Below are positions 3,383-17,025 of a stretch of 55,819 nt of DNA, piece after piece. The stretch is from Deltaproteobacteria bacterium UBA4427 (GTDB taxonomy: Bacteria; Myxococcota_A; UBA9160; UBA4427), in the NCBI GenBank assembly GCA_963854795.1, contig CAWLAJ010000001.1:1-55819 (forward strand), in the 5' to 3' direction. Under the pieces are notes generated by a model, which saw only the letters and a list, made by a program, of their open reading frames with translations, was not told the origin of the DNA and made no database searches. The position numbers were made by a program, and so were the translations under genes. The stretch's first letter is position 1; each line of letters begins with the position of its first letter.

Positions 3383-4384
3383 CTACCCAACCCCGCGGTT
3401 CGCTTCAGACCCCTTGGGCTGGGTTCGCCAGCGCCGATGGGTCCAGATCCACTGGCCAGGCGACTCTCGTATTTCCCTTTCGATCACGGCGGTGACCTGC
3501 TGGACATTGCGCCGTAGGATTTCTTCATCATCAGAAGCTCCGGGCGCGAGCTGGAGTGCCGGTTGAATCCGTAGGCAATGGCTGCGTCCGTCGGGCGCTC
3601 GGCGCACGAAGGCCGCCAGGACTGGAATTCCCCGCGCGGACGCGAGCGCGAGCGGCCCAGAGCGCGTGTTGGCCGGTCGGCCAAAGAAGGAGACGAAGAC
3701 GCCCTCCTCGCGGCGCGCGTCCTGATCGAGCAGGACAAGGACTTTTCGGCCTGCCTCGAGCGCACGAACGAACCGGATTCCCGCGCGTCCCATCGGGATC
3801 TGTTCGAGGGCCGGCGCGTCCGCGTCGTCGCCGCCTCGATTCGACGCAGCTCGAAGGCCGAGCATCATTTCCGTGAGTGCCGGCCGGCCGAGGTCGCGGT
3901 AGACGACGGAAATCGGAATGCCCAGTTCCGCAACTTTGGCACAAGCGATTTCCCAGTTTCCGTAGTGCGCGGTCACCATCAAGAGTCCGCCGGTCGGGCT
4001 CGCGCGCTCCGCCGCTTCGACATGCTCGAGGCCCTCGACCGAGACCCGTTCGAGCAATTCGCTTCGACGACGGCCGCGGAGGACGATCAGTTCGGCCAGA
4101 CCGCGACCAAGATGTTCGAAGACCTCTCGGGCCCAGACTTCTCTTCGCCCCGCATCTTCATCCGGCAGGGCGCGACCCAACTGCTCGCGAACGCGCACCG
4201 CCCGTGGCGCACCGATGCGATCCCAGCACCGACCGGCCAGGGCGCCCATCGCCACACTTCGATCGATCGGGATTCGCTCGAAGACGAAGGTCAAGAAGGA
4301 GGCGAGACCTAGAAGAGTTCGATCGGCCAGGGAGAGGGTACGCGGCGACAAAGGGCCCGATTCCTGATTCGCCTCATCCACCAT
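3383..4384 (-). CDS. lipid A biosynthesis lauroyl/myristoyl acyltransferase family protein (LpxL/HtrB, LABLAT)
   Basis: The HYGNWE (H-x4-E) catalytic motif, GRPANTRSGPLALA and the C-terminal PGQWIWTHRRW are typical of the family. Its start overlaps the stop of the upstream carboxylase (TGATG at 4382-4386). Confidence 0.8.
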   Translation of the reverse strand: MVDEANQESGPLSPRTLSLADRTLLGLASFLTFVFERIPIDRSVAMGALAGRCWDRIGAPRAVRVREQLGRALPDEDAGRREVWAREVFEHLGRGLAELIVLRGRRRSELLERVSVEGLEHVEAAERASPTGGLLMVTAHYGNWEIACAKVAELGIPISVVYRDLGRPALTEMMLGLRAASNRGGDDADAPALEQIPMGRAGIRFVRALEAGRKVLVLLDQDARREEGVFVSFFGRPANTRSGPLALASARGIPVLAAFVRRAPDGRSHCLRIQPALQLAPGASDDEEILRRNVQQVTAVIEREIRESPGQWIWTHRRWRTQPKGSEANRGVG

Positions 4385-7300
4385 CAGCTCGGATTGCCGC
4401 GGCGCGCCTCTTCCAGTGTCGCGATCAGGCGAGGTCGCAACTCGGCGGGTTCGAAAATCTCACTGAGCGATCCGACGTCGCGTGCCCGCTCGACCGTATG
4501 CACCGAATCGAATTCAACCGCCATGGACGCTTGTTTTTCGAGAGTTACTTCGCGCAACACGGAGTCGAGGGCGATTCGATTCAGCTCGGAAGGATCACGC
4601 CGAACGGCCTCGGTCATGTCCTTCACGCGCGGATCATCGAGCGCCTGTGCGCGAACTTCCCGAGTGAATACGACGGAGGCCGCAGGCCCGCCACCGATCA
4701 CGGAAGCATAAGAACCCGAGAGCGCGACCGCCTTCATGTTGTCGTTCAATTCCTGGGAGAACACGACATAGGCGCCACCGTGGTAACGCGAGACCACGGC
4801 GAAGTAGATCGGACCTTCGAAGTTGACCACCGATCGCGCAATCTCGGCACCATTTTCGAGCTGGATCTTTCTAAGGGATTCCGGGGAACCATCGAAACCC
4901 GAGAGATTCGCCAGTACGACGACGGGACGATTGCCGCTCGCAGCATTGATGGCCCGGGCAACCTTCTTCGACGATTGAGGAAAGAGCGTGCCCCCATTCC
5001 ACGACTCGGGACCATCGATCGGGTGGTAGCCGTCTCGAGGAACGTTCTGACTCTCGATTCCGATGAGCGAAATCGGTTGGCCACCCACATGGGCATCCCA
5101 GATGATCGCCGTCTCGGCGCCCACCCATGCGCTCCATCGTTCGAGATGACCCCCATCGACATCGATCAGCGACGCCATGACCGAGCGCATCGAGAAGGGG
5201 CGTTTTCGGCCGGGATTCGCTTCGACGTCGAAAAGTTCTCCGACCGTCGAGATTCCGTTGGAATCGCCATTCTTGAGCTGGGTGTCGCCGATCGATCGCG
5301 ATTTTTTGTCGCTGGTTGCGAACAGTCGCGGCCGCGATTCGCCTGGAACCACGTAGGTAAACTCGTAGTGCTCGTAGAGAATTCGATAGGCGTCTGCGAG
5401 GTTTCGGGCGAAATACTGTGCCTCGCCATTGGGGCCCATGATCCGTTCGAAGCCACCGATCGCGACTTCATCTTCCGCGGAGACGGCACCGGAGGCTTCG
5501 AGCGCCGCACGACCGGTGAGAACCATCGACGCGTTCTGCGTCATGATCAAAACGCCGCGCGTGTGCATCAGCATCGTTGCAAGGGCGTCGAAATAGCTCT
5601 GCGCACCCACGTTGATGCCCTGAACGATGATGTGGACGACGCCGCCCGACTGCGTGAAGGTCACGATTCGGCGAACGACACGGGCGGTCGCATCGAGATT
5701 CTCGGTGCCGCTATCCATCGCGATCCTCGCACCCGAAGAAATGGGCACCCATTCGAGTGGCACGCAAAGGGATTCTGCGAGATCGAAGGCGGCGATCATG
5801 CGGTCGCATTCGGGAGCCGACAAGGCACCCATATCCATGGTCGGATCCGAGAGGACGAGGACCCGCAGCATGCCCTCGGGCACTTTTTCAGTCGGCGTCC
5901 GAATCAGCCCGAAGACCACGGCGGATCGATTCTGCCCGTGAGGACGATCGGCGACACTCATCGCACGAGGCGCATCGCTTGCCGGATCGAGCTCGTATTC
6001 TTCGAACGTCGCGTCGGCGCCCGCACCGTCCTTCGATTCGCTCGTCAGCATCCTGACGATCTCATACGGATAGATGTGACGGCGGCGCCTCGCGGCGACG
6101 ACCTTGCGCTGATATTCCTGAGTCGGAGCCAGGACGGAGTCGTGCGGTTCTCGCCAAACGACCTCCAGCTGTTCCCCGGTATCGGTGATGATCAATTCCC
6201 AGGGCACGGCCGGCTCGTCGGGATTCTCTCGATCGAGACGATTGAGCCGGACGAGCACTTTCTCGAGACCGAGGTGTCGGGTCGCGGGCGCGAGTCGCCG
6301 GGCGATGTCGGTCGCGACGTCCGGGTCGACGAAGATCGACGGTGCGACGAAGATGGCAATCCGATTCCATTGCAGTCGTCTTCGCGGATCGTGTGTCTGT
6401 AGAATCGTTCGCAGTCGCCGTGCCGCGCGATTGAAAACACGTTCGAACGTCGCAAGATGGTGATAGAGCTCGCGACCGGGCTCCGGCGACCGATCTCGGG
6501 CATCCGCCAGGACGAAGACCCGTTCGTCGCCGGGGGCATCGTGTGCACGCCCGTGAAAAGCGTAGATGCCCTCCTCGGCGTTTAGTCGCTCCAGGTCGAA
6601 AGCCTGATAGCGCTGGAGATCAATCCTGTCGGCGGTTTCGGGATGCAGATCGTAATGTTCGACCGCGACTTCGATTTCGCCACCCCGACAAACGAGTGTC
6701 CGATAGACATCCCCTTCACCATCGGGCGTCAAGACGCCGATCGTCAAGCGCCAGGCGAATACTCTGTCGCGATAGGTATCCCGAATGGCGCCGAGCGTCG
6801 CTTCCCAATCGAATTCCTCGCCCAACGGCATCAGGTATTCGAGTGCCAGTACAGGAGTTTTCGGGTCGTGCTCGAGCAGCGACTGCGCACCTCGCATGAG
6901 CCGATCGACCCATAGGCTCGTTTGCGCGACATCGCCGGTCGCGGCAAGGACGACACCCTTTCCGCGATACTCGACGCAGTGAATCGGCTCGCCGTCGACG
7001 CGAACACGCCGAAAGGCCACGGGCGTACTTGGCGCATAACGTCGCTGAACATGAGCGGCTAGCGCGATCGCCCGGCGATTCGTATCCGAACCACCGATCC
7101 AACGACCGACCCGCTCGAAGACGAGGCGCGGCGACGAAGCGACTTCCAGAAGCACACCGGTGGGCGGTGCGATCAAATCGACCTCGGCGGCGGCCAGCCA
7201 CTCTTCCACCGTGCCAGATGATCGTTTCGCACGTTCTTCGATGCCCGGCTGCTGGAATACGACGTATGCCGATTCGAGTGCGGCGTCGGCGACCGCGTCC

Positions 7301-10005
7301 GTTACCTGTGGACGCATGCGAACGATCCGGTTGAGCGCGCGCGCCAGCCGATCATCGTCCCCCATGTAGATCCCACTCTGCGCGAGAGCCGTGATTCGTC
7401 TGAGGACTCCGAGAATGAGCGAGAGGCGAAGCGTCTTGGCGACCTGACAAGTCAGGATACGCAGCAGGGCGCGGCGAAGTGCATCGCTGGGTGCCAGATC
7501 ATCGACGCCGTAATGAGACAGGGCGGATCGGACGAGATCGAGAAAGACCTCGTCGATCCCTGCGCCTTCCGCTTCGATCCGACGCAGGTACATGCGCAGG
7601 CGAGCACTGTTCGAGGGCCCCGATTGCCCGGAAATCGAAGCGCTCGGCGAGCGAATCGAAAGCAGCTCGACGTCGGCAAACGTCGTCACTTGATTGCGAA
7701 TTTCCGCAAGCTCACGGCTGAAGCTCTCGGAGATCGTCTCCGGCAGCGGGCTCTCGAGAAAGGACGCCAGGGATTCCGCGCGATCGGGGTTCGCGTCGTA
7801 GCCAAGCAACACACGGCGAATCTCTTCACGCACCGCGTCGATCGCGAGGCGACGGGATGCGAGGTCCGCTCGGTCTGCTGCGGCGAGATCGGGCTCGCCG
7901 AGTTGCCGCACACCGTCCGAAAGGTCCTTCGGTCGAAAGAGCAAGGCCAGCGGATCGATTTGCTCGGGCAGACGAAGACGCTCACGCTCCGACTCGTCGC
8001 CGGATTCGGAATCGAGCTCCTCGATTATGAGAATCAGGTCTCCGGCGGCAACCTGCTGGCCCTTTTGAGCGAGAATTTCCTTGATGGTTCCCGAGACCGG
8101 CGCCTGGAAGCCGATCTCCATTTTCATCGCTTCGAGCAGACCCAGCGGCTCGCCAGCGGCGACGCTCTGGCCGACCTCGACCTGGATCGAGACGACCACC
8201 GCGGGCGTTCCCGATCGCACTTGCCCCGCCGTCTGCGAACCGAAACGAAAGGGATGTCCGTCGACTTCGAGTCTCAGTCCGCGGTCGTTCGCATCGTGAA
8301 GTATCCGACGAACACGGTCGTCGATGATCAGCCGACCGGCATGCTCCCCTTCCTCTCGCATCGTCGCGCCCACGGCCATCCCTTCGAGATGAACGCGGTA
8401 ACGCCATGAGCCGATCGCATAGACCTTGAGCCGATAGCTCTCAGCACCAAAGGTGAGGTCGATTTGCTGACCGTCCGAAGACGGAAGCCGATCTGCCCCT
8501 CCGCGAGCATCCAGGATTCCGGTTCGCAGCGTCGCGCGGGTTCTCTGATACGACAGGATCGCCGCGGCCACCAGCGCGTCACGAGAGACTTCGGGATGCG
8601 ATTGGACGACGTTCGCGCGTGATGCCGACCATCGATCGAGCCAACGCGTGTCGACCCCACCCTTTCGAAAATCATCACTGTCGAGAACGTCGAGCAGGTA
8701 GCCCTTGTTGGTTGCGCCGCCTTCGACCACGAGTTCTAGATCACGCAGCGAACAAGAAAGGCGCGCGATTACGTCGTTTCGATCATCTCCGTTCGAGATG
8801 ACCTTCACGATCAGTGAATCGAAATCCGAAGAAACGAGCGAGCCCGTCACGACGCCGGAGTCGACGCGGGTATTGGGTCCAAGCGCGGGTTCGAAGAGTG
8901 CTATGCGGCCTGGCGAGGGCAGAAAGCCCTCGTCGGGATCTTCTGCGCAAATGCGGGCTTCGAGGGCCATGCCCCTTTGTTGGATGGAAACCTTGGCGAT
9001 CGACTCGCCGCGGGCGATGCGAATCTGGAGTTCGACTAGATCGACACCCGTAATGATCTCGGTGATTCCGTGTTCGACTTGCAGACGAGGATTCACCTCG
9101 AGAAAGAAGTAGTCGCTGCCCGTCAGCAGAAACTCGACCGTTCCGACGCCGTGATAACCCACGTGCTCGATCAAGCGGACGGCGGCATCCTCCAATCGAT
9201 CGAGCAATTCCTTGGACAAACCGGGCGGCGGCGCTTCCTCGAGTACCTTCTGATTGCGTCTCTGGACGGAACAGTCGCGACAACCGAGCGACATGGCGTA
9301 GCCATGAGTGTCCGCTGCGACCTGCACCTCGATATGGCGACCATCGCGAACCATCGCTTCGACGAAGAGCGCATTGTTCCCGAATGCCGAGCCGGCCTCG
9401 GACTGTGCCGACCGAAAGGCTTCTGCCAGTTGGGCGGGCTCGTCGACCATGCGAATACCGCGTCCCCCGCCCCCGGCCGTCGCCTTCAAGACGACGGGAA
9501 AACCGATTCGCTTGGCGTGTTCGAGTGCATCCGCTTCGTCAACGAGCGCGCGACCACTCCATTTGGTCACAGGAACGCCGGCTTTTTCTGCCAGTAGCTT
9601 GGCAGTGATCTTGTCGCCAAGTGATCTCATCGCGCTAGCACTCGGCCCGAGGAAGACGATGCCTTCGGTGGTCAAGCGATCGACGAAGGTCGGGTCCTCG
9701 GCGACAAAGCCCCAGCCTGGCCAGACCGCGTCGGCGCCGACCGATCGCAACGCGGCCAATACGGCGTCGTGGTCGAGATAGGCGGCGACCGCTCCGTTCT
9801 CCGCCGAAAGAGCCACCGCCCGATCCGCCTGCCGCACGAAGAGTGCGTCGCGATCCGGCGGCGTGTAGAGCGCGATCAGTTCCAGACCGCCCCCTTCGGC
9901 TTCACGAAGGCTCTTGGCAGTTCGCAGACATCGAACGGCAGCCTCGCCCCGATTCACGATGGCAAGACGCTCAATTCTTCGTAGGATCCCCTTGGCGCTT
10001 GTCAT
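4384..10005 (-). CDS. single-chain multidomain biotin-dependent acyl-CoA carboxylase (BC - BCCP - long central region - CT), 1873 aa
   Basis: The N-terminal biotin carboxylase ATP-grasp domain shows IVNRGEAAVR, KATAGGGGRGIR and EVNPRLQVEH. The biotinyl domain carries LEAMKMEI (Lys codon at 8122-8124, residue 628). The C-terminal carboxyltransferase is of eukaryotic ACC type (ISSGARIAMDSG, LANLSGFDGSPESL, RYHGGAYVVFS). ATGA overlap with the PPTase stop at 10002-10005. Confidence 0.9.
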   Translation of the reverse strand: MTSAKGILRRIERLAIVNRGEAAVRCLRTAKSLREAEGGGLELIALYTPPDRDALFVRQADRAVALSAENGAVAAYLDHDAVLAALRSVGADAVWPGWGFVAEDPTFVDRLTTEGIVFLGPSASAMRSLGDKITAKLLAEKAGVPVTKWSGRALVDEADALEHAKRIGFPVVLKATAGGGGRGIRMVDEPAQLAEAFRSAQSEAGSAFGNNALFVEAMVRDGRHIEVQVAADTHGYAMSLGCRDCSVQRRNQKVLEEAPPPGLSKELLDRLEDAAVRLIEHVGYHGVGTVEFLLTGSDYFFLEVNPRLQVEHGITEIITGVDLVELQIRIARGESIAKVSIQQRGMALEARICAEDPDEGFLPSPGRIALFEPALGPNTRVDSGVVTGSLVSSDFDSLIVKVISNGDDRNDVIARLSCSLRDLELVVEGGATNKGYLLDVLDSDDFRKGGVDTRWLDRWSASRANVVQSHPEVSRDALVAAAILSYQRTRATLRTGILDARGGADRLPSSDGQQIDLTFGAESYRLKVYAIGSWRYRVHLEGMAVGATMREEGEHAGRLIIDDRVRRILHDANDRGLRLEVDGHPFRFGSQTAGQVRSGTPAVVVSIQVEVGQSVAAGEPLGLLEAMKMEIGFQAPVSGTIKEILAQKGQQVAAGDLILIIEELDSESGDESERERLRLPEQIDPLALLFRPKDLSDGVRQLGEPDLAAADRADLASRRLAIDAVREEIRRVLLGYDANPDRAESLASFLESPLPETISESFSRELAEIRNQVTTFADVELLSIRSPSASISGQSGPSNSARLRMYLRRIEAEGAGIDEVFLDLVRSALSHYGVDDLAPSDALRRALLRILTCQVAKTLRLSLILGVLRRITALAQSGIYMGDDDRLARALNRIVRMRPQVTDAVADAALESAYVVFQQPGIEERAKRSSGTVEEWLAAAEVDLIAPPTGVLLEVASSPRLVFERVGRWIGGSDTNRRAIALAAHVQRRYAPSTPVAFRRVRVDGEPIHCVEYRGKGVVLAATGDVAQTSLWVDRLMRGAQSLLEHDPKTPVLALEYLMPLGEEFDWEATLGAIRDTYRDRVFAWRLTIGVLTPDGEGDVYRTLVCRGGEIEVAVEHYDLHPETADRIDLQRYQAFDLERLNAEEGIYAFHGRAHDAPGDERVFVLADARDRSPEPGRELYHHLATFERVFNRAARRLRTILQTHDPRRRLQWNRIAIFVAPSIFVDPDVATDIARRLAPATRHLGLEKVLVRLNRLDRENPDEPAVPWELIITDTGEQLEVVWREPHDSVLAPTQEYQRKVVAARRRRHIYPYEIVRMLTSESKDGAGADATFEEYELDPASDAPRAMSVADRPHGQNRSAVVFGLIRTPTEKVPEGMLRVLVLSDPTMDMGALSAPECDRMIAAFDLAESLCVPLEWVPISSGARIAMDSGTENLDATARVVRRIVTFTQSGGVVHIIVQGINVGAQSYFDALATMLMHTRGVLIMTQNASMVLTGRAALEASGAVSAEDEVAIGGFERIMGPNGEAQYFARNLADAYRILYEHYEFTYVVPGESRPRLFATSDKKSRSIGDTQLKNGDSNGISTVGELFDVEANPGRKRPFSMRSVMASLIDVDGGHLERWSAWVGAETAIIWDAHVGGQPISLIGIESQNVPRDGYHPIDGPESWNGGTLFPQSSKKVARAINAASGNRPVVVLANLSGFDGSPESLRKIQLENGAEIARSVVNFEGPIYFAVVSRYHGGAYVVFSQELNDNMKAVALSGSYASVIGGGPAASVVFTREVRAQALDDPRVKDMTEAVRRDPSELNRIALDSVLREVTLEKQASMAVEFDSVHTVERARDVGSLSEIFEPAELRPRLIATLEEARRGNPS

Positions 10006-10760
10006 GCTGTGCGTACTCGCGTCACGACGGAGGGACGCGTGGACTGCTGGCTTGCCAGAGACCGCTCATCCTTCTCTGAATGCGATTCGAGGCCCATCGC
10101 ATAACCAACCCATTTCCCGTGATGCGACAGCGATAGAGACAGGTCGGTTGGGGCGTCGTCGAAGACGAGGGTCGGGATGCGTCCGCGACCCCCGATGGAG
10201 AGTCGCTCCACCGCGACGCCCAGCCTTTGTCCGATTTCGCGGATCGCCAGTTCCCGAACGGCGGTATTCGGGTCCTGCGGCTCGCGACCGAGACTCTCGA
10301 CGGCAAAGTCGACGCCGCCCCAATCCGTCCTGGCCGGCGCCGCGATCACATGGATACGCTCCAAACTCTCGTCCGTCCGCAATTCGAGTTCGAGCGGCTC
10401 TCGTCGTTTCCCGGGTCGAGAGTCGGGTCGAGAGTCGGGCGCGGGCGCCAAGCCAATATCCGGCCATTCGAGTAGGAGACTTCCACGGCGCTCGCGCTTT
10501 TCGGCGCCTTCGCTCGCCATCGGCGCATAACATGCAATCAGTCGCCGCGGCGCGAACACGAATGTCGGATCGATCTGCCGCGCAAGCTTGTAGGCAGCTT
10601 CCTTTGCGGCCCAATGTGCCCATCGTCTCGCGAGCGGATTCGGATCTTCCGCGATCGCACGTCGTTCGCTCTCGGAAAAGACGCGTCGATCGAAGCCCGG
10701 CCGAAAGGTCTCCGGGCGAGCGTCGCGATCGCGGAGATCCACGACGTCATTGCCGAGCAT
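10002..10760 (-). CDS. 4'-phosphopantetheinyl transferase
   Basis: GNDVVDL at the N-terminus, RVFSESERRAI, and WAAKEAAYKL (the W/KEA motif of PPTases). ATG at 10760 (the track starts at the TTG at 10763). It overlaps the upstream acyltransferase 3' end by 14 nt. It contains a 12-nt tandem duplication encoding PDSRPDSRP. Confidence 0.75.
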   Translation of the reverse strand: MLGNDVVDLRDRDARPETFRPGFDRRVFSESERRAIAEDPNPLARRWAHWAAKEAAYKLARQIDPTFVFAPRRLIACYAPMASEGAEKRERRGSLLLEWPDIGLAPAPDSRPDSRPGKRREPLELELRTDESLERIHVIAAPARTDWGGVDFAVESLGREPQDPNTAVRELAIREIGQRLGVAVERLSIGGRGRIPTLVFDDAPTDLSLSLSHHGKWVGYAMGLESHSEKDERSLASQQSTRPSVVTRVRTA

Positions 10761-11559
10761 CAAAATAGTCCCTTTCCAGATGTGCGAGCTGACGGGTCAC
10801 CTGACGCGACAGATCGAGCGAACGGCGCACGCCGCGCGCGTCGCTCTTCGGTTCGATACAGACCATTGAAACGTCGAAGACATCCCCCTTCTCGGGAAAA
10901 TCACTCCAGGACGTCTGCCTGTGCCCGCGCAAATAGACACAGAGCACGCGACAGCGGGGAACGCGACCCACGACACGACCCACACCCCAGGCCGCGGCCT
11001 CTTCATCCACGCGGCCGGATCGGCTTCGACCCGCTTCCGGAAAGAGCAAGGCCGTCTCGCCGCTCGAGAGCAGGTACCGAACACGCTCGAGGACCGAGGC
11101 AACGCCTTCGCGCGATCCTCCACGTGTGATCGAAATGCACTTCATCCAGTAGATCATGATCCGCGAGGTCCACGTCGTCCCAAAATTCGTGCTCTCCGGA
11201 GTGTTCCAGACCATCTCGTCGGGGTGGGTCAGCCAATACACGCCCGATCCCAAGGCCCAGGAGACCAGGAACGAATCGACCAGGGTCAGATGATTGGCAC
11301 AGATGAGCATCGGGGCGTTCGATTGGCGCCGAATTCGTTGGTACTCCGCACGAAGCGAAGTGACTCTCTCGATCCGGTATCGGAAATGGAAACGCATCGC
11401 GAGGATCGTCAGACCTAGCCAGATCGGCGAGGTCAAGATGCTCACGATTCGCTGCCGCCCATGGCGGCGCACCATCAGGGAATCCCCGCCAGCGGGCCCT
11501 CTCGCCACGGTCGGAGAATCCGAGCGATGGTCCTCCGCGCCGGTCATCTGGTCATTCAT
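10747..11559 (-). CDS. PlsC-family (1-acyl-sn-glycerol-3-phosphate / lysophospholipid) acyltransferase
   Basis: H-x4-D block ANHLTLVDS, FPEAGRSRSG block, and an N-terminal TM segment IVSILTSPIWLGLTILAM. Confidence 0.8.
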   Translation of the reverse strand: MNDQMTGAEDHRSDSPTVARGPAGGDSLMVRRHGRQRIVSILTSPIWLGLTILAMRFHFRYRIERVTSLRAEYQRIRRQSNAPMLICANHLTLVDSFLVSWALGSGVYWLTHPDEMVWNTPESTNFGTTWTSRIMIYWMKCISITRGGSREGVASVLERVRYLLSSGETALLFPEAGRSRSGRVDEEAAAWGVGRVVGRVPRCRVLCVYLRGHRQTSWSDFPEKGDVFDVSMVCIEPKSDARGVRRSLDLSRQVTRQLAHLERDYFDARQ

Positions 11560-11595
11560 TTCGGGACTCGCATATGCAGGTCTCTCGAAATCGAA

Positions 11596-11841
11596 TCAGA
11601 GCTTTCCCGAAATGAGATTGACGGCATCGCCCACGGTATTGACCTGATCAACGTCTTCATCCGCAATCTCGATATCGAAATCGTCTTCAAAGGCGATGAC
11701 GACATCCACGAGTCGCGCCGAATTGACTTTGAGATCGTCCAGAATATTGGTCTCCATCGAGACCTGGCCCAATGCCGCTTCGTCCTTGACCCACGGCGTG
11801 AGAATCTTGACGACTCGCTCCATCACTTCCGACTGTTCCAT
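11596..11841 (-). CDS. acyl carrier protein (atypical attachment-site motif)
   Basis: 81 aa, acidic, four-helix ACP pattern. The presumed phosphopantetheine serine lies in DDLKVNSARLVDVV instead of the canonical DLGxDSLDxVE. Confidence 0.8.
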   Translation of the reverse strand: MEQSEVMERVVKILTPWVKDEAALGQVSMETNILDDLKVNSARLVDVVIAFEDDFDIEIADEDVDQVNTVGDAVNLISGKL

Positions 11842-11922
11842 CCTTCACTCCCTCTTCTTGGCTCTTGTTACTTCTGTCTTTTCTTCATGAGAATCTCATT
11901 CGCTCGTTGGAAGAATCTCCGA

Positions 11923-11938
11923 CGAACGCATGCGTTCG
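11923..11938. promoter_or_regulatory. perfect 16-nt palindrome CGAACGCATGCGTTCG between the KS stop and the ACP start (hairpin or operator)
   Basis: Read directly from the sequence. It lies in the 103-nt gap, the largest intergenic gap inside the operon. Confidence 0.3.
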
Positions 11939-11944
11939 CGAGCG

Positions 11945-13237
11945 CTACTCCTTGTAGCGCTTGAAAACGAGACAGGCATTGACGTCGCCGAATCCAAATC
12001 CGGCCTTTACGAGTACTTCGAGGTCCGGCATTTCGATCATGCTATGCGGAATCGATTTCGCGTGCTTTTCGATTTCCGGATGAATGTCCTCACAGTTGAT
12101 CGAAGGATGGACGAAGCCACGCTCGACCATCAAGATCGACGCGACGGCTTCGAGACCTCCGGCCGCTCCGAGCGCATGTCCCACCATGCTCTTGGTTGCC
12201 GTCAGTGGCGGCAGTGATCCGGGATCTCGTCCCAACGCCTTCGCCCAGGAATCGACTTCCTTCGGATCCGCTCCGGTCGCAGTCAGATGACCATTGATCG
12301 CATCGACTTCGTCGGGACGAACACCGGCGTCCGCGAGAGCGTCGGAAATACAGCGCTGAACGCTGGTCGGATTCGGAGCCGTCATGCTGCCGCCCATTCG
12401 ATGGCCGCCACAATTGATGCCAGAACCCGCGAGTTCGGCACGAATCTTCGCACCTCGCGCCAGCGCACTCTCGAGGCTTTCGAGCATGACGGCGCCGGCA
12501 CCCGAACCGGGTATGAAACCACCCGCGGACGCACTCAAGGGCCGCGATGCCTTTTCAGGTTCGTCATTCGAATTGCGATTCAAGACGCGCATCGAATCGA
12601 ACCCCGCCCAGATGAAATGACTCGCCGCCTCGACTCCGCCGCAGAGCATCCGATCGGCCAGCCCCGCACGAATCCGTTCCATTCCCATAGAGAGGGCTTC
12701 GGTTCCCGTGCTGCAAGCGCTGGAATTGGTCGTCACCTGATTGCCGAGAGCCAGCAGCCCCGAAAGCCGCGCCGAAATTCCGCTGGCCATCACCTGCTCA
12801 ACGCAGACCGAGCCCATTCGCCGCACCTTGGCAGCATTGGTGAGAGGAACGACTTTTTCGGCGATCGTATCCATTCCCCCGATCCCGGTACCCATGATTG
12901 CGCCGGTTTCCCAATTCACTTCGTCAGAGTCCTCGGCGGGACGTTCGAGTCCGGCGTCCAACCACGCCTCGATCGCCGCGAGTCCCGCGTAACGATGATT
13001 CATATTCATCGCCATCAGCTGTTCTTCGGTAAAAGTCTCTTCACATAGCGCGTCCACACCTTCGGGCGTACCCGCAACCGTGCAGCCGAATTTCGCTTCG
13101 GCCATCGCTTCCTGATGTCGCAGGCCCGAGTGACCCTTGCGCAGTGCCATCTCGAAATCAGCCACGCCGTTCCCGTTCGGCGCGATGACGCCGATGCCGG
13201 TAATGACCACGCGCTTGCGTTCCTGGTTCCCACTCAT
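11945..13237 (-). CDS. beta-ketoacyl-ACP synthase I/II (FabB/FabF-like elongating KS)
   Basis: VVITGIGVIAPNG; active-site Cys in NSSACSTG; His residues in INGHLTAT and MVGHALGAAG. I prefer the ATG at 13237 (MSGNQERK...), which forms an ATGA overlap with the dehydratase stop. The track start at 13273 would overlap further. Confidence 0.85.
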   Translation of the reverse strand: MSGNQERKRVVITGIGVIAPNGNGVADFEMALRKGHSGLRHQEAMAEAKFGCTVAGTPEGVDALCEETFTEEQLMAMNMNHRYAGLAAIEAWLDAGLERPAEDSDEVNWETGAIMGTGIGGMDTIAEKVVPLTNAAKVRRMGSVCVEQVMASGISARLSGLLALGNQVTTNSSACSTGTEALSMGMERIRAGLADRMLCGGVEAASHFIWAGFDSMRVLNRNSNDEPEKASRPLSASAGGFIPGSGAGAVMLESLESALARGAKIRAELAGSGINCGGHRMGGSMTAPNPTSVQRCISDALADAGVRPDEVDAINGHLTATGADPKEVDSWAKALGRDPGSLPPLTATKSMVGHALGAAGGLEAVASILMVERGFVHPSINCEDIHPEIEKHAKSIPHSMIEMPDLEVLVKAGFGFGDVNACLVFKRYKE

Positions 13238-13692
13238 CGTGGCACTCCCATTCCGGACAGCTCTCCCGAGCAAACGACCGTCCCATCATCGATCGTCATC
13301 TCAAAGGTGGCACGCAGTTTCTTGCGGCGAAAGAACTTCACGCGTCCGGTCGTCTGAACCCGATCTCCCGGCCGTACGGCGCCCGAGAAATCAATGTTGC
13401 AATCGGTAAAGATCGTGAGCAGCTTGCCGACATCCTCCCGCGAAGTCTGGAGCGCATAGAGGTAAATGCCAAACGCAACGACACTCGCCTGCGCGGCGGT
13501 TTCGATCAAGATGACACCCGGCGTGATCGGATTGCCCGGGAAGTGGCCGCGATAGAAGTCGGCTTCTGGCGAGAAGGTATGGCGCGCCACGATATGGTCG
13601 GCATCGAGTTCGAGAATCTCGTCGATGAAACGAAACGGCTCCTGTTGCGGCACCAATGCCAGGACTTCGGCGACCGAAAGTGTGTCACCCAC
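13234..13692 (-). CDS. fabZ: 3-hydroxyacyl-ACP dehydratase, FabZ-like hotdog fold
   Basis: PFRFIDEILELD...GHFPGNPITPGVILIETAAQ signature. The preferred start is the GTG at 13692, preceded by GGAGG with an 8-nt spacer. The alternative ATG at 13713 lacks an SD. The track start at 13785 lies inside fabG. Confidence 0.75.
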   Translation of the reverse strand: MGDTLSVAEVLALVPQQEPFRFIDEILELDADHIVARHTFSPEADFYRGHFPGNPITPGVILIETAAQASVVAFGIYLYALQTSREDVGKLLTIFTDCNIDFSGAVRPGDRVQTTGRVKFFRRKKLRATFEMTIDDGTVVCSGELSGMGVPR

Positions 13693-14413
13693 CGTACATG
13701 CCTCCGTTGACATGGAGGACCGTCCCATTGATGTAACTCCCGCGCGTCGCGAGAAACGCGACGACATCGGCGATCTCATCCGCATTGCCCATTCTCCCCA
13801 TCGGGATCTTGGCCAGAATCGCTTCCTTGACTTCTTCTGGTAGCTCTTTGGTCATTTCGGTATCGATGAACCCGGGCGCGATCGAATTGATCAGGATGTC
13901 GCGGCCGGCGAGTTCCTGTGCGACGGACTTGGTCATGGCATCGAGACCCGCCTTCACCATCGTATAGGGAACCTGCCCGGGATTCCCGGTATGTCCGACC
14001 ACGCTCGAAATATTGATGATGCGCCCCGTTCCCTTCCGCAACATGAATCGACGCAAGATCAACTTCGTGAGATACCAGGTTCCCCGCTCGACACTGGCGA
14101 CGGCATCATATTGGTCGAGTTTCATCGCGAGCATCGGCGCGTTTTCGTTGTAGCCCGCGTTGTTGACGAGGACGTCGACGCGTCCGGCAACTTCTTTGAG
14201 TTCCTTGACGAGTGCATCGAGGGTTTCGGGTTCCATCAGGTCGGCCCGGATCGTGAAGGCGCCATCGAGTTCGGCGGCGAGCTTTTTGGCCTTTTCCTCG
14301 CTCGAGCGATAGTGGATGCCCACTCGAAAACCCTCGCCGGCAAGTCGACGACAACAAGTGGCACCGATTCCGGTTCCACCTCCCGTCACCAACGCGATCG
14401 GCTGATCACTCAT
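13685..14413 (-). CDS. fabG: 3-oxoacyl-ACP reductase (SDR)
   Basis: TGGGTGIG cofactor motif, NNAG, and the catalytic YTMVK (Y-x3-K). 242 aa. ATGA overlap with the fabA stop at 14410-14413. Confidence 0.85.
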   Translation of the reverse strand: MSDQPIALVTGGGTGIGATCCRRLAGEGFRVGIHYRSSEEKAKKLAAELDGAFTIRADLMEPETLDALVKELKEVAGRVDVLVNNAGYNENAPMLAMKLDQYDAVASVERGTWYLTKLILRRFMLRKGTGRIINISSVVGHTGNPGQVPYTMVKAGLDAMTKSVAQELAGRDILINSIAPGFIDTEMTKELPEEVKEAILAKIPMGRMGNADEIADVVAFLATRGSYINGTVLHVNGGMYGG

Positions 14414-15003
14414 CGTTCCGTCCTTCCGCCATGGGCGTTCTCGCTCTCGAAGGGGTAGTCCGGATAGTCGATCCCTTGAAAGAGCCCGACCCGAGCACCC
14501 TTGATCGTATAGATTTCCTCGTCATCGATCAGCACCTGCGCGTCGCCGATCACCATCGCCGCGCCCGCCTTCTTGAGTTCGGTGTAGCGCTTGATCTGAA
14601 CCTCGTATCGCATCATCCCGTCGTGCGGCCGGATTTGACCAAAGAACTCGACCTCTCCGCACCCGAGTGCCCGTCCGGTCCCGACGCCCCCTCGCCAATT
14701 GCAATAGAAACCGAGCAGCTGCCAGACACCATCGAGGCCGAGACATCCCGGCTGAACCGGGTCATCCAGGAAATGACAATGAAAGAACCAATCATCGAGC
14801 CGCACATCACGAGCCGCGCTGATCTTTCCGCGACTCTTGTCGGCGCTGATCTCGTCGATCCGGTCGACCATCAACATCGGCGGTAGCGGCAAGCGCGCGC
14901 GAAAACCCTCCGGCGGATCCTTGATCAAACGGCCATAGGCAAAGGCGAGCAACTCCGATTGCGAAAAAGAATCGCGCCCCAGAAACTCAGCATGAGTCAG
15001 CAT
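14410..15003 (-). CDS. fabA: 3-hydroxydecanoyl-ACP dehydratase / trans-2-decenoyl-ACP isomerase
   Basis: Strong match to the FabA core: LPLPPMLMVDRI, DWFFHCHFLDDPVQPGCLGLDGVWQLLGFY, GRALGCGEVEFFGQIRP. Confidence 0.85.
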   Translation of the reverse strand: MLTHAEFLGRDSFSQSELLAFAYGRLIKDPPEGFRARLPLPPMLMVDRIDEISADKSRGKISAARDVRLDDWFFHCHFLDDPVQPGCLGLDGVWQLLGFYCNWRGGVGTGRALGCGEVEFFGQIRPHDGMMRYEVQIKRYTELKKAGAAMVIGDAQVLIDDEEIYTIKGARVGLFQGIDYPDYPFESENAHGGRTER

Positions 15004-15009
15004 TGCAGT

Positions 15010-16005
15010 TCAGTCGTCCTCGTGAAAACGCATAAGATAACTCCCCCAGGTGAGCCCAGAACCCACACCCACGACGCAAATATCATCGTTTTGGGTCCAT
15101 TTGTCCCAATCCTGGGAGATCACACCACCAGAACTCGCCCCGCCTGTATTTCCGAAATACTCACAATTGAAATGATGTCGATCTTCCGGGATTTCACAGC
15201 GCTGACAGACGGATTCGAGCATTCGAAGATTCGCCTGATGACCGACGAAATGAAAATTTCGCTGATCCCCTTCGAATTCTTCGCGAGTCTTCAAATAGAG
15301 ATCGGAGGTCTTGCGAATGGCAAAGGCCTGGACCGTTCGGCCTTCTTGTCGGAAATGCCCATTGCGAGGAATCACGACTTTCCCATGACCGCGGGGATCG
15401 CTGGTCAGTGTTTGACCCAGCAGAGCCGCCCGGCCGCGATGTTTCGTCGAGAGTACTGCCGCGAGCGCGCCATCTCCCCAAAGCACCGCTGAAGATCGGT
15501 CGTTGTAGTCGACGGTTCCCGTCATCGGTTCCGCCGTCACCAACAAGACGACTTCAGGAAGCTTGGCCGGGTCCATCAACGAAAGCATGTAGATGCCCGC
15601 AATGAAACTCGAACACGCCGAACTGATGTCGAGACAGGCCGCCTCGACTTCGAGTTCCGCGCCGATATTGCACGCTTCGGCCGGCGACGCCGTATCGGGT
15701 GCGCATCCGCCCCCGATCAAGAGCCCGACATCCGACGTGGATACACCCGCGCGATCCAGCGCCATCCTTGCTGCTCGCCCACCCATCGCGGCATTCGAGA
15801 CCAGGGCGGCTTGCGTGGCTTCGCGGGGATCTCGATTCCGGGTTTCACGAATATAGTCGAGAGGGAGCGCCGTCCGTCGACTGCGGATTCCGGTTCGCTC
15901 GAGAATCCATTCGTCATTGGTGCCGATGTCGAGTTCTTCGAGGAATCGATTCGTAATTTCGTTCTCGGGATGGAAATGGCCCAATCCCAAAAGATTCAAG
16001 CTCAA
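15010..16005 (-). CDS. fabH: 3-oxoacyl-ACP synthase III (KAS III)
   Basis: Cys-His-Asn triad contexts SSACSSF, VGHQANLRM and FGNTGGAS. 331 aa. Confidence 0.8.
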   Translation of the reverse strand: MSLNLLGLGHFHPENEITNRFLEELDIGTNDEWILERTGIRSRRTALPLDYIRETRNRDPREATQAALVSNAAMGGRAARMALDRAGVSTSDVGLLIGGGCAPDTASPAEACNIGAELEVEAACLDISSACSSFIAGIYMLSLMDPAKLPEVVLLVTAEPMTGTVDYNDRSSAVLWGDGALAAVLSTKHRGRAALLGQTLTSDPRGHGKVVIPRNGHFRQEGRTVQAFAIRKTSDLYLKTREEFEGDQRNFHFVGHQANLRMLESVCQRCEIPEDRHHFNCEYFGNTGGASSGGVISQDWDKWTQNDDICVVGVGSGLTWGSYLMRFHEDD

Positions 16006-16074
16006 GACTATTCTCCAAGCTGGATCACGTGTCGCGAGTCGGAAGCCAACGATGCCTCCTCGTGCGATGCGTGT

Positions 16075-17025
16075 TCAGCGAGTCGCTCCTGAAATGTGCT
16101 CCCCACCGTCGACGCGAATCACTTCACCATTGATCCAACTCGCTTCGTCCTGGGAGAGAAGAAAGATCACACCCGCAACGTCTTCGGGCGTGGTCAGGCG
16201 ACATCCGGGGTTGCGCAGCCGTGCCTGACTCTTCAGCTGATCACTACCCGGGATGGCTCGCAATGCGGGCGTATTGGTCACGCCCGCCTGAATCACATTG
16301 CAGCGGATGCCGTGTGGGCCGAACTCGACGGCGATCGAACGCGAGAGCGCCTCGAGTGAAACCTTGGCCGCCGAGACCGCCGCATAGCCGCGCCAGGCCA
16401 CTTCATTGCCCTCGCTGGTCAGCCCGAAGATGCGCGTGTCCGGAGCGAAGAGACCTCGTGCAAACAATTCCTGCGTCCAGCCGAGCAGACTCGTACCCAT
16501 GGCCAGAATCGTACGACTGAAGTCTTCCTCGTCGAGGTAGGAACTGTCGGGGTAGATCGGAGCGCTCGTGAGGGGGTGCAGACCATCTTCACCCTCTTCG
16601 AAGAGTTCATCCGCAAGTTCGGTCAGTTTGGCGGGATCGACACCGAGTCGAGTAGCGAGATTCGGGCCCGCAGTCCGCTCTTCTCTCTTCTCCGGAGCGA
16701 TTAGTTTGAGATTCCCGAAGGCGATCGAATGTAACAAGACGCGAATTCGACCCTCCGGTCCGATCGCCTCGGCAATAGAATCGATCGTGAGCGTGCGTTT
16801 GTCCGCACTGATCGCGTCGGCGTTCCAGATATGGAGTCCGGTTCCGATTTCGGCCAGCTCGTCGAAATGAGGTTGGATGTTCTTCATCGCCCCCCGCCGA
16901 TCACGATGGACGATCAAGATGTTCAGCCCACCACGGGCCAGACGTTTGGCGGTCGCCAAACCAAAACCGCTGGAGCCACCCAGAATCAGCGCCCACTCAT
17001 TGCTCGGAAAATCGCTCGTTGCCAA
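16075..17025 (-). CDS. SDR-family enoyl-ACP reductase-like protein (FabI/FabL-type Y-x6-K) with an internal insertion
   Basis: Rossmann motif ILGGSSGFGLA. YAAVSAAK gives the Tyr-x6-Lys spacing characteristic of enoyl reductases rather than the Y-x3-K of ketoreductases. A roughly 50-aa acidic insertion (EKREERTAG...EEGEDGL...) is present. It is the first gene of the operon. Confidence 0.55.
   Translation of the reverse strand: MATSDFPSNEWALILGGSSGFGLATAKRLARGGLNILIVHRDRRGAMKNIQPHFDELAEIGTGLHIWNADAISADKRTLTIDSIAEAIGPEGRIRVLLHSIAFGNLKLIAPEKREERTAGPNLATRLGVDPAKLTELADELFEEGEDGLHPLTSAPIYPDSSYLDEEDFSRTILAMGTSLLGWTQELFARGLFAPDTRIFGLTSEGNEVAWRGYAAVSAAKVSLEALSRSIAVEFGPHGIRCNVIQAGVTNTPALRAIPGSDQLKSQARLRNPGCRLTTPEDVAGVIFLLSQDEASWINGEVIRVDGGEHISGATR

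Follow-up and report, generated by a model that had tools for sequence, protein, structure and literature searches.

Acetyl-CoA carboxylase (ACC) is known from eukaryotes as one long chain, exemplified by yeast Acc1 (PDB entries 5CSL, 5CSK, and 5I6E) and human ACC1 (6G2D and 8XL1), with ~2200 to 2400 amino acids (aa) and the domain order biotin carboxylase (BC), BT, biotin carboxyl carrier protein (BCCP), central domain (CD), and carboxyltransferase (CT). Bacterial single-chain carboxylases have also been described. The long-chain acyl-CoA carboxylase (LCC) of Mycobacterium avium subsp. paratuberculosis (4RCN) has BC, BCCP, and CT on a chain of ~1090 aa. SACE_4237 of Saccharopolyspora erythraea is a multidomain carboxylase of ~200 kDa with a central region that resembles the one in eukaryotic ACC (Livieri et al. 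2019, PMC6491548). SACE_4237 is an essential enzyme that functions only in the homodimeric state and can complement an E. coli accB(ts) mutant; it carboxylates acetyl-CoA (kcat/Km 0.85) and propionyl-CoA (0.52), with no activity on palmitoyl-CoA (PMC6491548). Here, we analyzed a stretch of 55,819 nucleotides from Deltaproteobacteria bacterium UBA4427, a member of the Myxococcota (contig CAWLAJ010000001.1, positions 1 to 55,819; this whole stretch is called the window), in which a minus-strand gene at 4384 to 10005 encodes a single-chain biotin-dependent carboxylase of 1873 aa. Our data point toward a bacterial ACC of the eukaryotic type, which probably carboxylates acetyl-CoA (and possibly also propionyl-CoA) to provide malonyl-CoA for a co-encoded type II fatty acid synthesis.

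Domain architecture and the central domain

The gene (4384 to 10005, stop codon included) is one frame of 1873 codons, free of internal stops, with a calculated protein mass of 204.8 kDa; all features given below lie on the same minus strand. The BC (ATP-grasp) domain comprises residues 11 to 457 (8635 to 9975; PF00289, PF02786, and PF02785), matches the accC model with 448 bits and BC domains in the PDB with E values of ~1e-100, and has both GGGGRGIR and EVNPRLQVEH (residues 303 to 312) intact, with KATAGGGGRGIR located at residues 174 to 185. The linker that joins BC to BCCP, residues 458 to 595 (8221 to 8634), is spanned by unbroken alignments to the alpha subunits of methylcrotonyl-CoA carboxylase (3u9s, 9 to 663) and propionyl-CoA carboxylase (3n6r, 13 to 660), and because both carry their BT domain there, we read it as BT-like. 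It is followed by the biotinyl (BCCP) domain, residues 596 to 661 (8023 to 8220; PF00364, E value of 1.2e-15), with EAMKME at residues 625 to 630 and Lys628 (codon 8122 to 8124) as the predicted site of biotin attachment. At the C terminus, residues 1346 to 1873 (4387 to 5970) form the CT domain (PF01039), within which the Pfam Carboxyl_trans match spans residues 1378 to 1791. Its characteristic motifs are SSGARI, NLSGFDGS, and HGGAYVV; SSGARIAMDSG is found at residues 1423 to 1433, LANLSGFDGSPESLRKIQLENGAEI at residues 1698 to 1722, and YHGGAYVVFS at residues 1741 to 1750. Hence the catalytic motifs are complete in the 1873-aa protein, and they are invariant family-wide. The preliminary description of this DNA had reported a single open reading frame (ORF) of 1873 aa with these motifs, and every one of them, including the Lys628 codon, was recovered where it had been placed.

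Between BCCP and CT, the protein is opaque to single-sequence searches, as the preliminary description had fairly stated when it found no recognizable motif there. A Pfam search with the whole protein left residues 662 to 1377 without any assignment, and residues 665 to 1330 alone matched no Pfam family, PF08326 (ACC_central) included, even at an E value of ≤10. A single-sequence phmmer search of the PDB sequences with the central region gave only a chance-level match to an isochorismate synthase (E value of 0.02), and the NCBIfam search with the whole protein returned only BC and BCCP models, all under their cut-offs, and no family name.

A different picture emerged from the relatives. Among 25 relatives with 59 to 86% overall identity to the window protein, 13 matched PF08326 at an E value of ≤0.01, and the gathering cut-off was exceeded in all 4 relatives inspected individually; the relatives with matches above the Pfam cut-off are 50 to 60% identical. 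The matching pieces are colinear with the profile: protein positions 838 to 986 correspond to profile positions 197 to 347, 1076 to 1144 to 516 to 584, and 1114 to 1252 to 535 to 676. Furthermore, a profile built from 31 central regions of the relatives' loci (17 to 75% identical to that of the window protein) found only eukaryotic ACC central domains among 177,635 PDB sequences, namely, those of Chaetomium (5I6H, E value of 6e-21), yeast (5I6E, 1.5e-19; 5CSK, 3.8e-18), and human (6G2D, 5e-13); the next matches were designed proteins with E values of >0.1. An AlphaFold2 model of residues 664 to 1345 (mean pLDDT of 86.5, pTM of 0.82) predicts a long helical stretch followed by two alpha/beta subdomains. 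With this model as the query, all 29 Foldseek matches in the PDB at an E value of ≤0.001 were ACCs of yeast, human, or Chaetomium (best E value of 6.5e-21), the alignments to 5csk and 5csl covered ~700 columns with a query-normalized TM-score of ~0.5, and the next match had an E value of 4e-3.

Because Pfam in the relatives, the sequence profile, and the predicted structure agree independently, we consider the central region, as judged from sequence and model, to be a diverged but genuine ACC central domain. It extends over residues 664 to 1345 (5971 to 8016) and corresponds to the eukaryotic AC1-AC5 (CDN-CDL-CDC1-CDC2). Its predicted helical part, residues ~685 to 990 (7036 to 7953; helices at model positions 22 to 327 according to DSSP), is aligned to residues 204 to 340 of the yeast central-domain chain. 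The first alpha/beta subdomain follows with strands and helices at model positions 332 to 450 (residues ~995 to 1113; 6667 to 7023), and the second at model positions 473 to 622 (residues ~1136 to 1285; 6151 to 6600). The latter is aligned to residues 466 to 704 of the Chaetomium ACC chain, and the same region in the relatives matches PF08326 positions 516 to 676. These searches bear out the preliminary description, which had suggested a counterpart of this region in eukaryotic ACC. That description had also named, as a refutation, an ordinary, well-annotated domain in a common bacterial family, and the region has indeed turned out to be a domain already described (PF08326). The bacterial family that carries it is fairly common, and short-chain specificity is known for one of its members.

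The central domain also varies in length. Four full-length homologues from metagenome-assembled genomes (MAGs) assigned to Polyangiaceae, "Proteobacteria," and Binatia (L057, L059, L060, and L065) have central regions of just 452 to 514 aa compared to ~680 aa, and lack ~170 to 230 aa in the query range of ~920 to 1130, which covers the first alpha/beta subdomain. Two of them, L057 and L060, are the deepest bacterial branches of the CT tree described below.

Carboxyltransferase and relation to known carboxylases

A profile built from 23 CT domains matched the CT of eukaryotic ACC with E values of 7e-31 to 1e-22, compared to 2e-13 for the best bacterial beta subunit and 1e-7 or worse for PccB, AccD5, and AccD6. 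A maximum likelihood tree was computed from three kinds of CT: those of bacterial single-chain enzymes, five PccB-like ones encoded in the window's genome, and three partial ones from eukaryotes (transcribed from HMMER alignment printouts). In it, the eukaryotic CTs group with those of the bacterial single-chain enzymes, apart from the PccB-like CTs, with a support of 100/100. The motifs at both oxyanion holes are conserved and have the eukaryotic pattern (SGARI and GGAYVV). These sequence comparisons place the CT with the eukaryotic ACC type, in line with the resemblance to the fused eukaryotic CT pointed out in the preliminary description; its best relatives of solved structure are eukaryotic ACC CTs.

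With yeast and human ACC, the window protein shares the BC-BT-BCCP-CD-CT order, the CT subtype, and a central-domain fold made of a helical part and two alpha/beta subdomains. It is shorter by several hundred residues (1873 aa compared to the eukaryotic ~2200 to 2400 aa), has a CT of ~530 to 560 aa instead of ~770 aa, and its central domain is only ~15% identical to the eukaryotic one and fails the PF08326 model itself, so that homology is seen via relatives, profiles, and fold. LCC (4RCN) has BC, BCCP, and CT on one bacterial chain as well, but it lacks the central domain and carries a CT of the PccB type. With AccA/AccB/AccC/AccD of E. coli, the window protein presumably shares the chemistry and the role in starting fatty acid synthesis, whereas the E. 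coli enzyme consists of four separate subunits and has a CT of another subfamily.

The closest ties are to SACE_4237 and its "group V" orthologues, whose genera include Actinomadura, Nocardiopsis, and Streptosporangium according to Fig. S4 of the original paper (PMC6491548). A Gordonia homologue used as the query retrieved hundreds of proteins of ~1820 aa from Nocardia, Gordonia, Actinomadura, Nocardiopsis, and Streptosporangium. The window protein is 40% identical to a Streptosporangium sp. homologue (P0368) over 1895 aligned columns; domain by domain, the identity to the actinobacterial homologue is 49% for BC, 25% for BT, 42% for BCCP, 26% for the central domain, and 56% for CT. The two sides have the same domain order, a similar size (204.8 kDa compared to ~200 kDa), a central region homologous to that of eukaryotic ACC, a CT that groups with eukaryotic ACC CTs, and the same invariant CT motifs. 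On this sequence evidence, we assign the window protein to the SACE_4237 family of multidomain ACCs. This kind of enzyme has been known in bacteria since 2019, and the window protein adds a member to it, not a new kind. There are nevertheless clear differences: the host is a Gram-negative member of the Myxococcota, translational coupling ties the gene into a type II fab operon, Pfam ACC_central misses the central domain but detects all listed actinobacterial members, and the actinobacterial enzymes form a nested clade of the CT tree while the window protein stands in another, Myxococcota-rich branch. Our literature search found no report of this enzyme type in Myxococcota, which is not proof that there is none.

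Operon, proposed function, and alternatives

The carboxylase gene is gene 10 of 11 in a minus-strand operon (3383 to 17025) that encodes, in this order, a FabL-like enoyl reductase, a FabH-like beta-ketoacyl-ACP synthase (KAS) III, FabA, FabG, a FabZ-like dehydratase, a KAS I/II, an acyl carrier protein (ACP), a PlsC-family acyltransferase, a 4′-phosphopantetheinyl transferase (PPTase), the carboxylase, and an LpxL-family acyltransferase. The part from the FabL-like protein to the PlsC-family acyltransferase spans 10747 to 17025; the PPTase (10002 to 10763) was assigned by PF01648 and the downstream LpxL/HtrB-family acyltransferase (3383 to 4384) by PF03279 (E value of 8e-38). The TGA of the PPTase gene overlaps the ATG of the carboxylase gene (ATGA at 10002 to 10005), and the TGA of the carboxylase gene overlaps the ATG of the acyltransferase gene (TGATG at 4382 to 4386); these overlaps in the sequence indicate co-translation with the operon neighbors. 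The gene order around the carboxylase is kept in ~20 Myxococcota loci, down to ~55% identity, and more distant homologues are located elsewhere and are not tied to this operon. Five loci with an ACC and a fab operon close to those of Myxococcota (L026, L032, L033, L049, and L064) are labeled "uncultured Spirochaetales/Spirochaetaceae" and are probably mislabeled bins. In a Woeseiaceae MAG (L039:1094-9982) and an uncultured Actinomycetes MAG (L062:3112-9939), the single-chain ACC gene lies directly downstream of a gene for a PfaA-like megasynthase of 2300 to 3000 aa (KS-AT-ACP-KR-DH), that is, a lipid synthase that also consumes malonyl-CoA. ORFs of ~3000 aa are located upstream of the carboxylase gene at L042 and L056, too.

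In our model, for which substrate range and homodimeric state are inferred by analogy, the protein would act as a homodimer, as do yeast ACC and SACE_4237. BC would carboxylate the biotin on Lys628 with ATP and bicarbonate, and the swinging BCCP would take the carboxybiotin to the CT dimer, with BC and CT positioned by the non-catalytic central domain of ~640 residues. The CT dimer would then hand the carboxyl group to acetyl-CoA (probably also propionyl-CoA), and the malonyl-CoA formed would be supplied to the co-transcribed and translationally coupled type II fatty acid machinery. In the lineage of the window, the single-chain enzyme would stand in for AccA/AccB/AccC/AccD.

The distribution of AccA is what such a functional replacement predicts. 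Among 151 genomes sampled from the phylum, the central domain is present in 52, AccA in 49, and both in 4 (odds ratio of 0.1), counts that are phylogenetically non-independent, so that kinship inflates any P value derived from them. The near-exclusive pattern is also seen within families: in family f10, AccA is present in 10 of 11 genomes and the sole genome without it (G100) has the single-chain enzyme, and family f28 has two genomes that lack AccA (G056 and G117), the same two in which the single-chain enzyme is present. In the order to which the window belongs, the single-chain enzyme was found in 21 of the 23 sampled genomes, and neither AccA (0 of 23) nor AccD was found in any of them.

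The other genes for lipid synthesis in the genome bear on the role of the operon. An LCC orthologue of 1092 aa is encoded on another contig (C3:13580-16858; L110:1081-4359) and matches 4RCN over its full length with 1023 bits; judged by sequence, the genome holds both kinds of single-chain carboxylase, distinct families side by side. Other contigs hold a canonical fabD-acpP pair (C14), a canonical FabH (C27), and a FabF that is better than the KAS of the operon; the short contig C372 carries a FabH-FabF pair. Several operon members are divergent: the ACP scored 48 bits against an NCBIfam cut-off of 70 and the KAS 293 against 494, and the FabH-like and FabZ-like proteins were likewise under their cut-offs. 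The layout may be likened to that of acpXL-lpxXL in rhizobia, a cluster that provides lipid A with a special acyl chain. A purely private second fatty acid synthesis operon had been considered, and this idea was softened, as no FabA/FabZ-type dehydratase was found outside the operon in the assembly, which is 90.8% complete. Because the only dehydratases of this type found in the genome are encoded there, the operon is part of the cell's fatty acid machinery, though several of its members are divergent.

A further possibility, raised in the preliminary description, is that the enzyme carboxylates long-chain acyl-CoA and that the operon uses the 2-carboxyacyl products for Claisen-type head-to-head condensation. 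Long-chain activity is indeed known from single-chain carboxylases of bacteria (LCC, 4RCN), and the operon has a FabH-like enzyme of the thiolase fold that stays under the FabH cut-offs as well as two acyltransferases. However, the central domain and the eukaryote-type CT set the window protein apart from the LCC type, a full-length LCC orthologue is encoded separately in the genome, and the characterized family member SACE_4237 is inactive on palmitoyl-CoA. Moreover, the operon is an ordinary type II set with a full reductive cycle (FabG, FabA/FabZ-like dehydratases, enoyl reductase, KAS, and ACP, next to the FabH-like protein), which is typical of elongation driven by malonyl-ACP, and Pks13-like or OleBCD-like genes are absent from it; condensation of the OleA or Pks13 type by the operon was rejected for lack of such partners. 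We consider the long-chain alternative very unlikely. The odds are somewhat better, though still low, for a short-chain carboxylase dedicated to a specialized lipid made by the operon, with a two-subunit PccB-type carboxylase as the source of housekeeping malonyl-CoA. This would fit the operon's own divergent ACP, PPTase, and KAS, its LpxL- and PlsC-family acyltransferases, the sub-cut-off scores of its ACP, KAS, and FabH-like protein, the canonical genes elsewhere in the genome, the possible likeness to the acpXL-lpxXL layout, and the presence of several PccB-type carboxylases. Against it stand the dehydratases, with which the operon is not purely accessory, the near mutual exclusion of the single-chain enzyme and AccA phylum-wide and within families, and the distant homologues that are not bound to this operon. 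Finally, the ORF might be an artefact of assembly or annotation that fuses BC-BCCP and CT genes, a danger that the preliminary description had named itself. The window does come from a fragmented MAG of 449 contigs, but more than 600 homologues of ~1870 aa share the domain order, many of them on long contigs; independent assemblies with the full-length architecture number in the hundreds, and among them are multi-megabase or closed contigs as well as Gordonia and Nocardia isolates; and the stretch between BCCP and CT is a conserved domain with a predicted fold. An artefact is ruled out for practical purposes.

An ACC that feeds the type II machinery of the operon is the reading that we prefer, but several points weigh against it. 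The characterized multidomain ACCs of bacteria are all actinobacterial, and the biochemical data come from SACE_4237; in addition, the CT is just 56% and the central domain just 26% identical to the actinobacterial homologue, and the tie to SACE_4237 runs via homologues in its orthologue genera. In the CT, yeast ANWRGFSGG is aligned with ANLSGFDGS, so that the arginine of the eukaryotic NWRGFSGG is replaced by serine in NLSGFDGS. We take this arginine to be Arg1954 of yeast, presumably important for malonyl-CoA binding. The serine is invariant across the whole bacterial family, and because this includes the actinobacterial members, it does not separate the window protein from the characterized enzyme. 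Neither accA nor accD was found above the cut-off in the genome (4.39 Mb), which in an assembly of 90.8% completeness is not proof of absence, and the kinship among the genomes counted above has to be kept in mind. Furthermore, the genome encodes seven PccB-type CTs and several two-subunit PccB-type carboxylases. In Myxococcus, a two-subunit PccB-type carboxylase reportedly makes malonyl-CoA, and this could apply here.

Distribution, origin, and significance

A search with the central domain in a library of 1.8 billion representatives gave 730 clusters (50% identity) at an E value of ≤1e-3, and dozens of species-representative genomes carry full-length relatives. Full-length homologues are present in Myxococcota, Bradymonadia, Binatia, Gammaproteobacteria (Woeseiaceae and Halieaceae), a MAG labeled KSB1/Deferribacteres, Acidobacteriota, and Actinomycetota.

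The single-chain ACC with a central domain was proposed in 2019 to be an actinobacterial invention (PMC6491548). In our CT tree, for which the PccB-like CTs served as the root, the sampled single-chain enzymes of bacteria form a clade (96/95) that excludes the eukaryotes, and the actinobacterial ones are a derived group (100/99) within it, nested among sequences from Myxococcota, Binatia, and Gammaproteobacteria. Constraining eukaryotes and actinobacteria to one clade is disfavored and costs 13.4 log-likelihood units (approximately unbiased test, p = 0.02); this group was named once the tree had been seen, but the 2019 paper had already hypothesized it. The tree is weak evidence, as it represents one domain, with three partial eukaryotic sequences, very long stems, and a distant outgroup. 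It is conceivable from this topology, but on balance doubtful, that the single-chain central-domain ACC is an old enzyme of Myxococcota-like and other Gram-negative lineages and was the source of the actinobacterial and perhaps the eukaryotic ACC. Such an old Gram-negative origin, if true, would fit other proposed myxobacterial contributions to eukaryotic lipid metabolism.

The labels under which these proteins are found, "ATP-grasp domain-containing protein" and "carboxyl transferase domain-containing protein," mask their function, and Pfam ACC_central overlooks this branch. With 1873 aa and apparently without regulatory insertions, the compact bacterial version would be a handy model for studying the placement of BC and CT by the central domain, and it would serve as a one-gene source of malonyl-CoA in metabolic engineering. 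What the window adds to the known family is a Gram-negative lineage with an apparently standard single-chain ACC, tight coupling to a fab operon, and a central domain that the Pfam model fails to detect. In sum, ACCs in the style of yeast and human, central scaffold included, are also found outside eukaryotes and the few actinomycetes. One whole order of Myxococcota apparently has this enzyme as its standard ACC, several other Gram-negative phyla have it as well, and this phylogenetic spread bears on the origin of the eukaryotic ACC.

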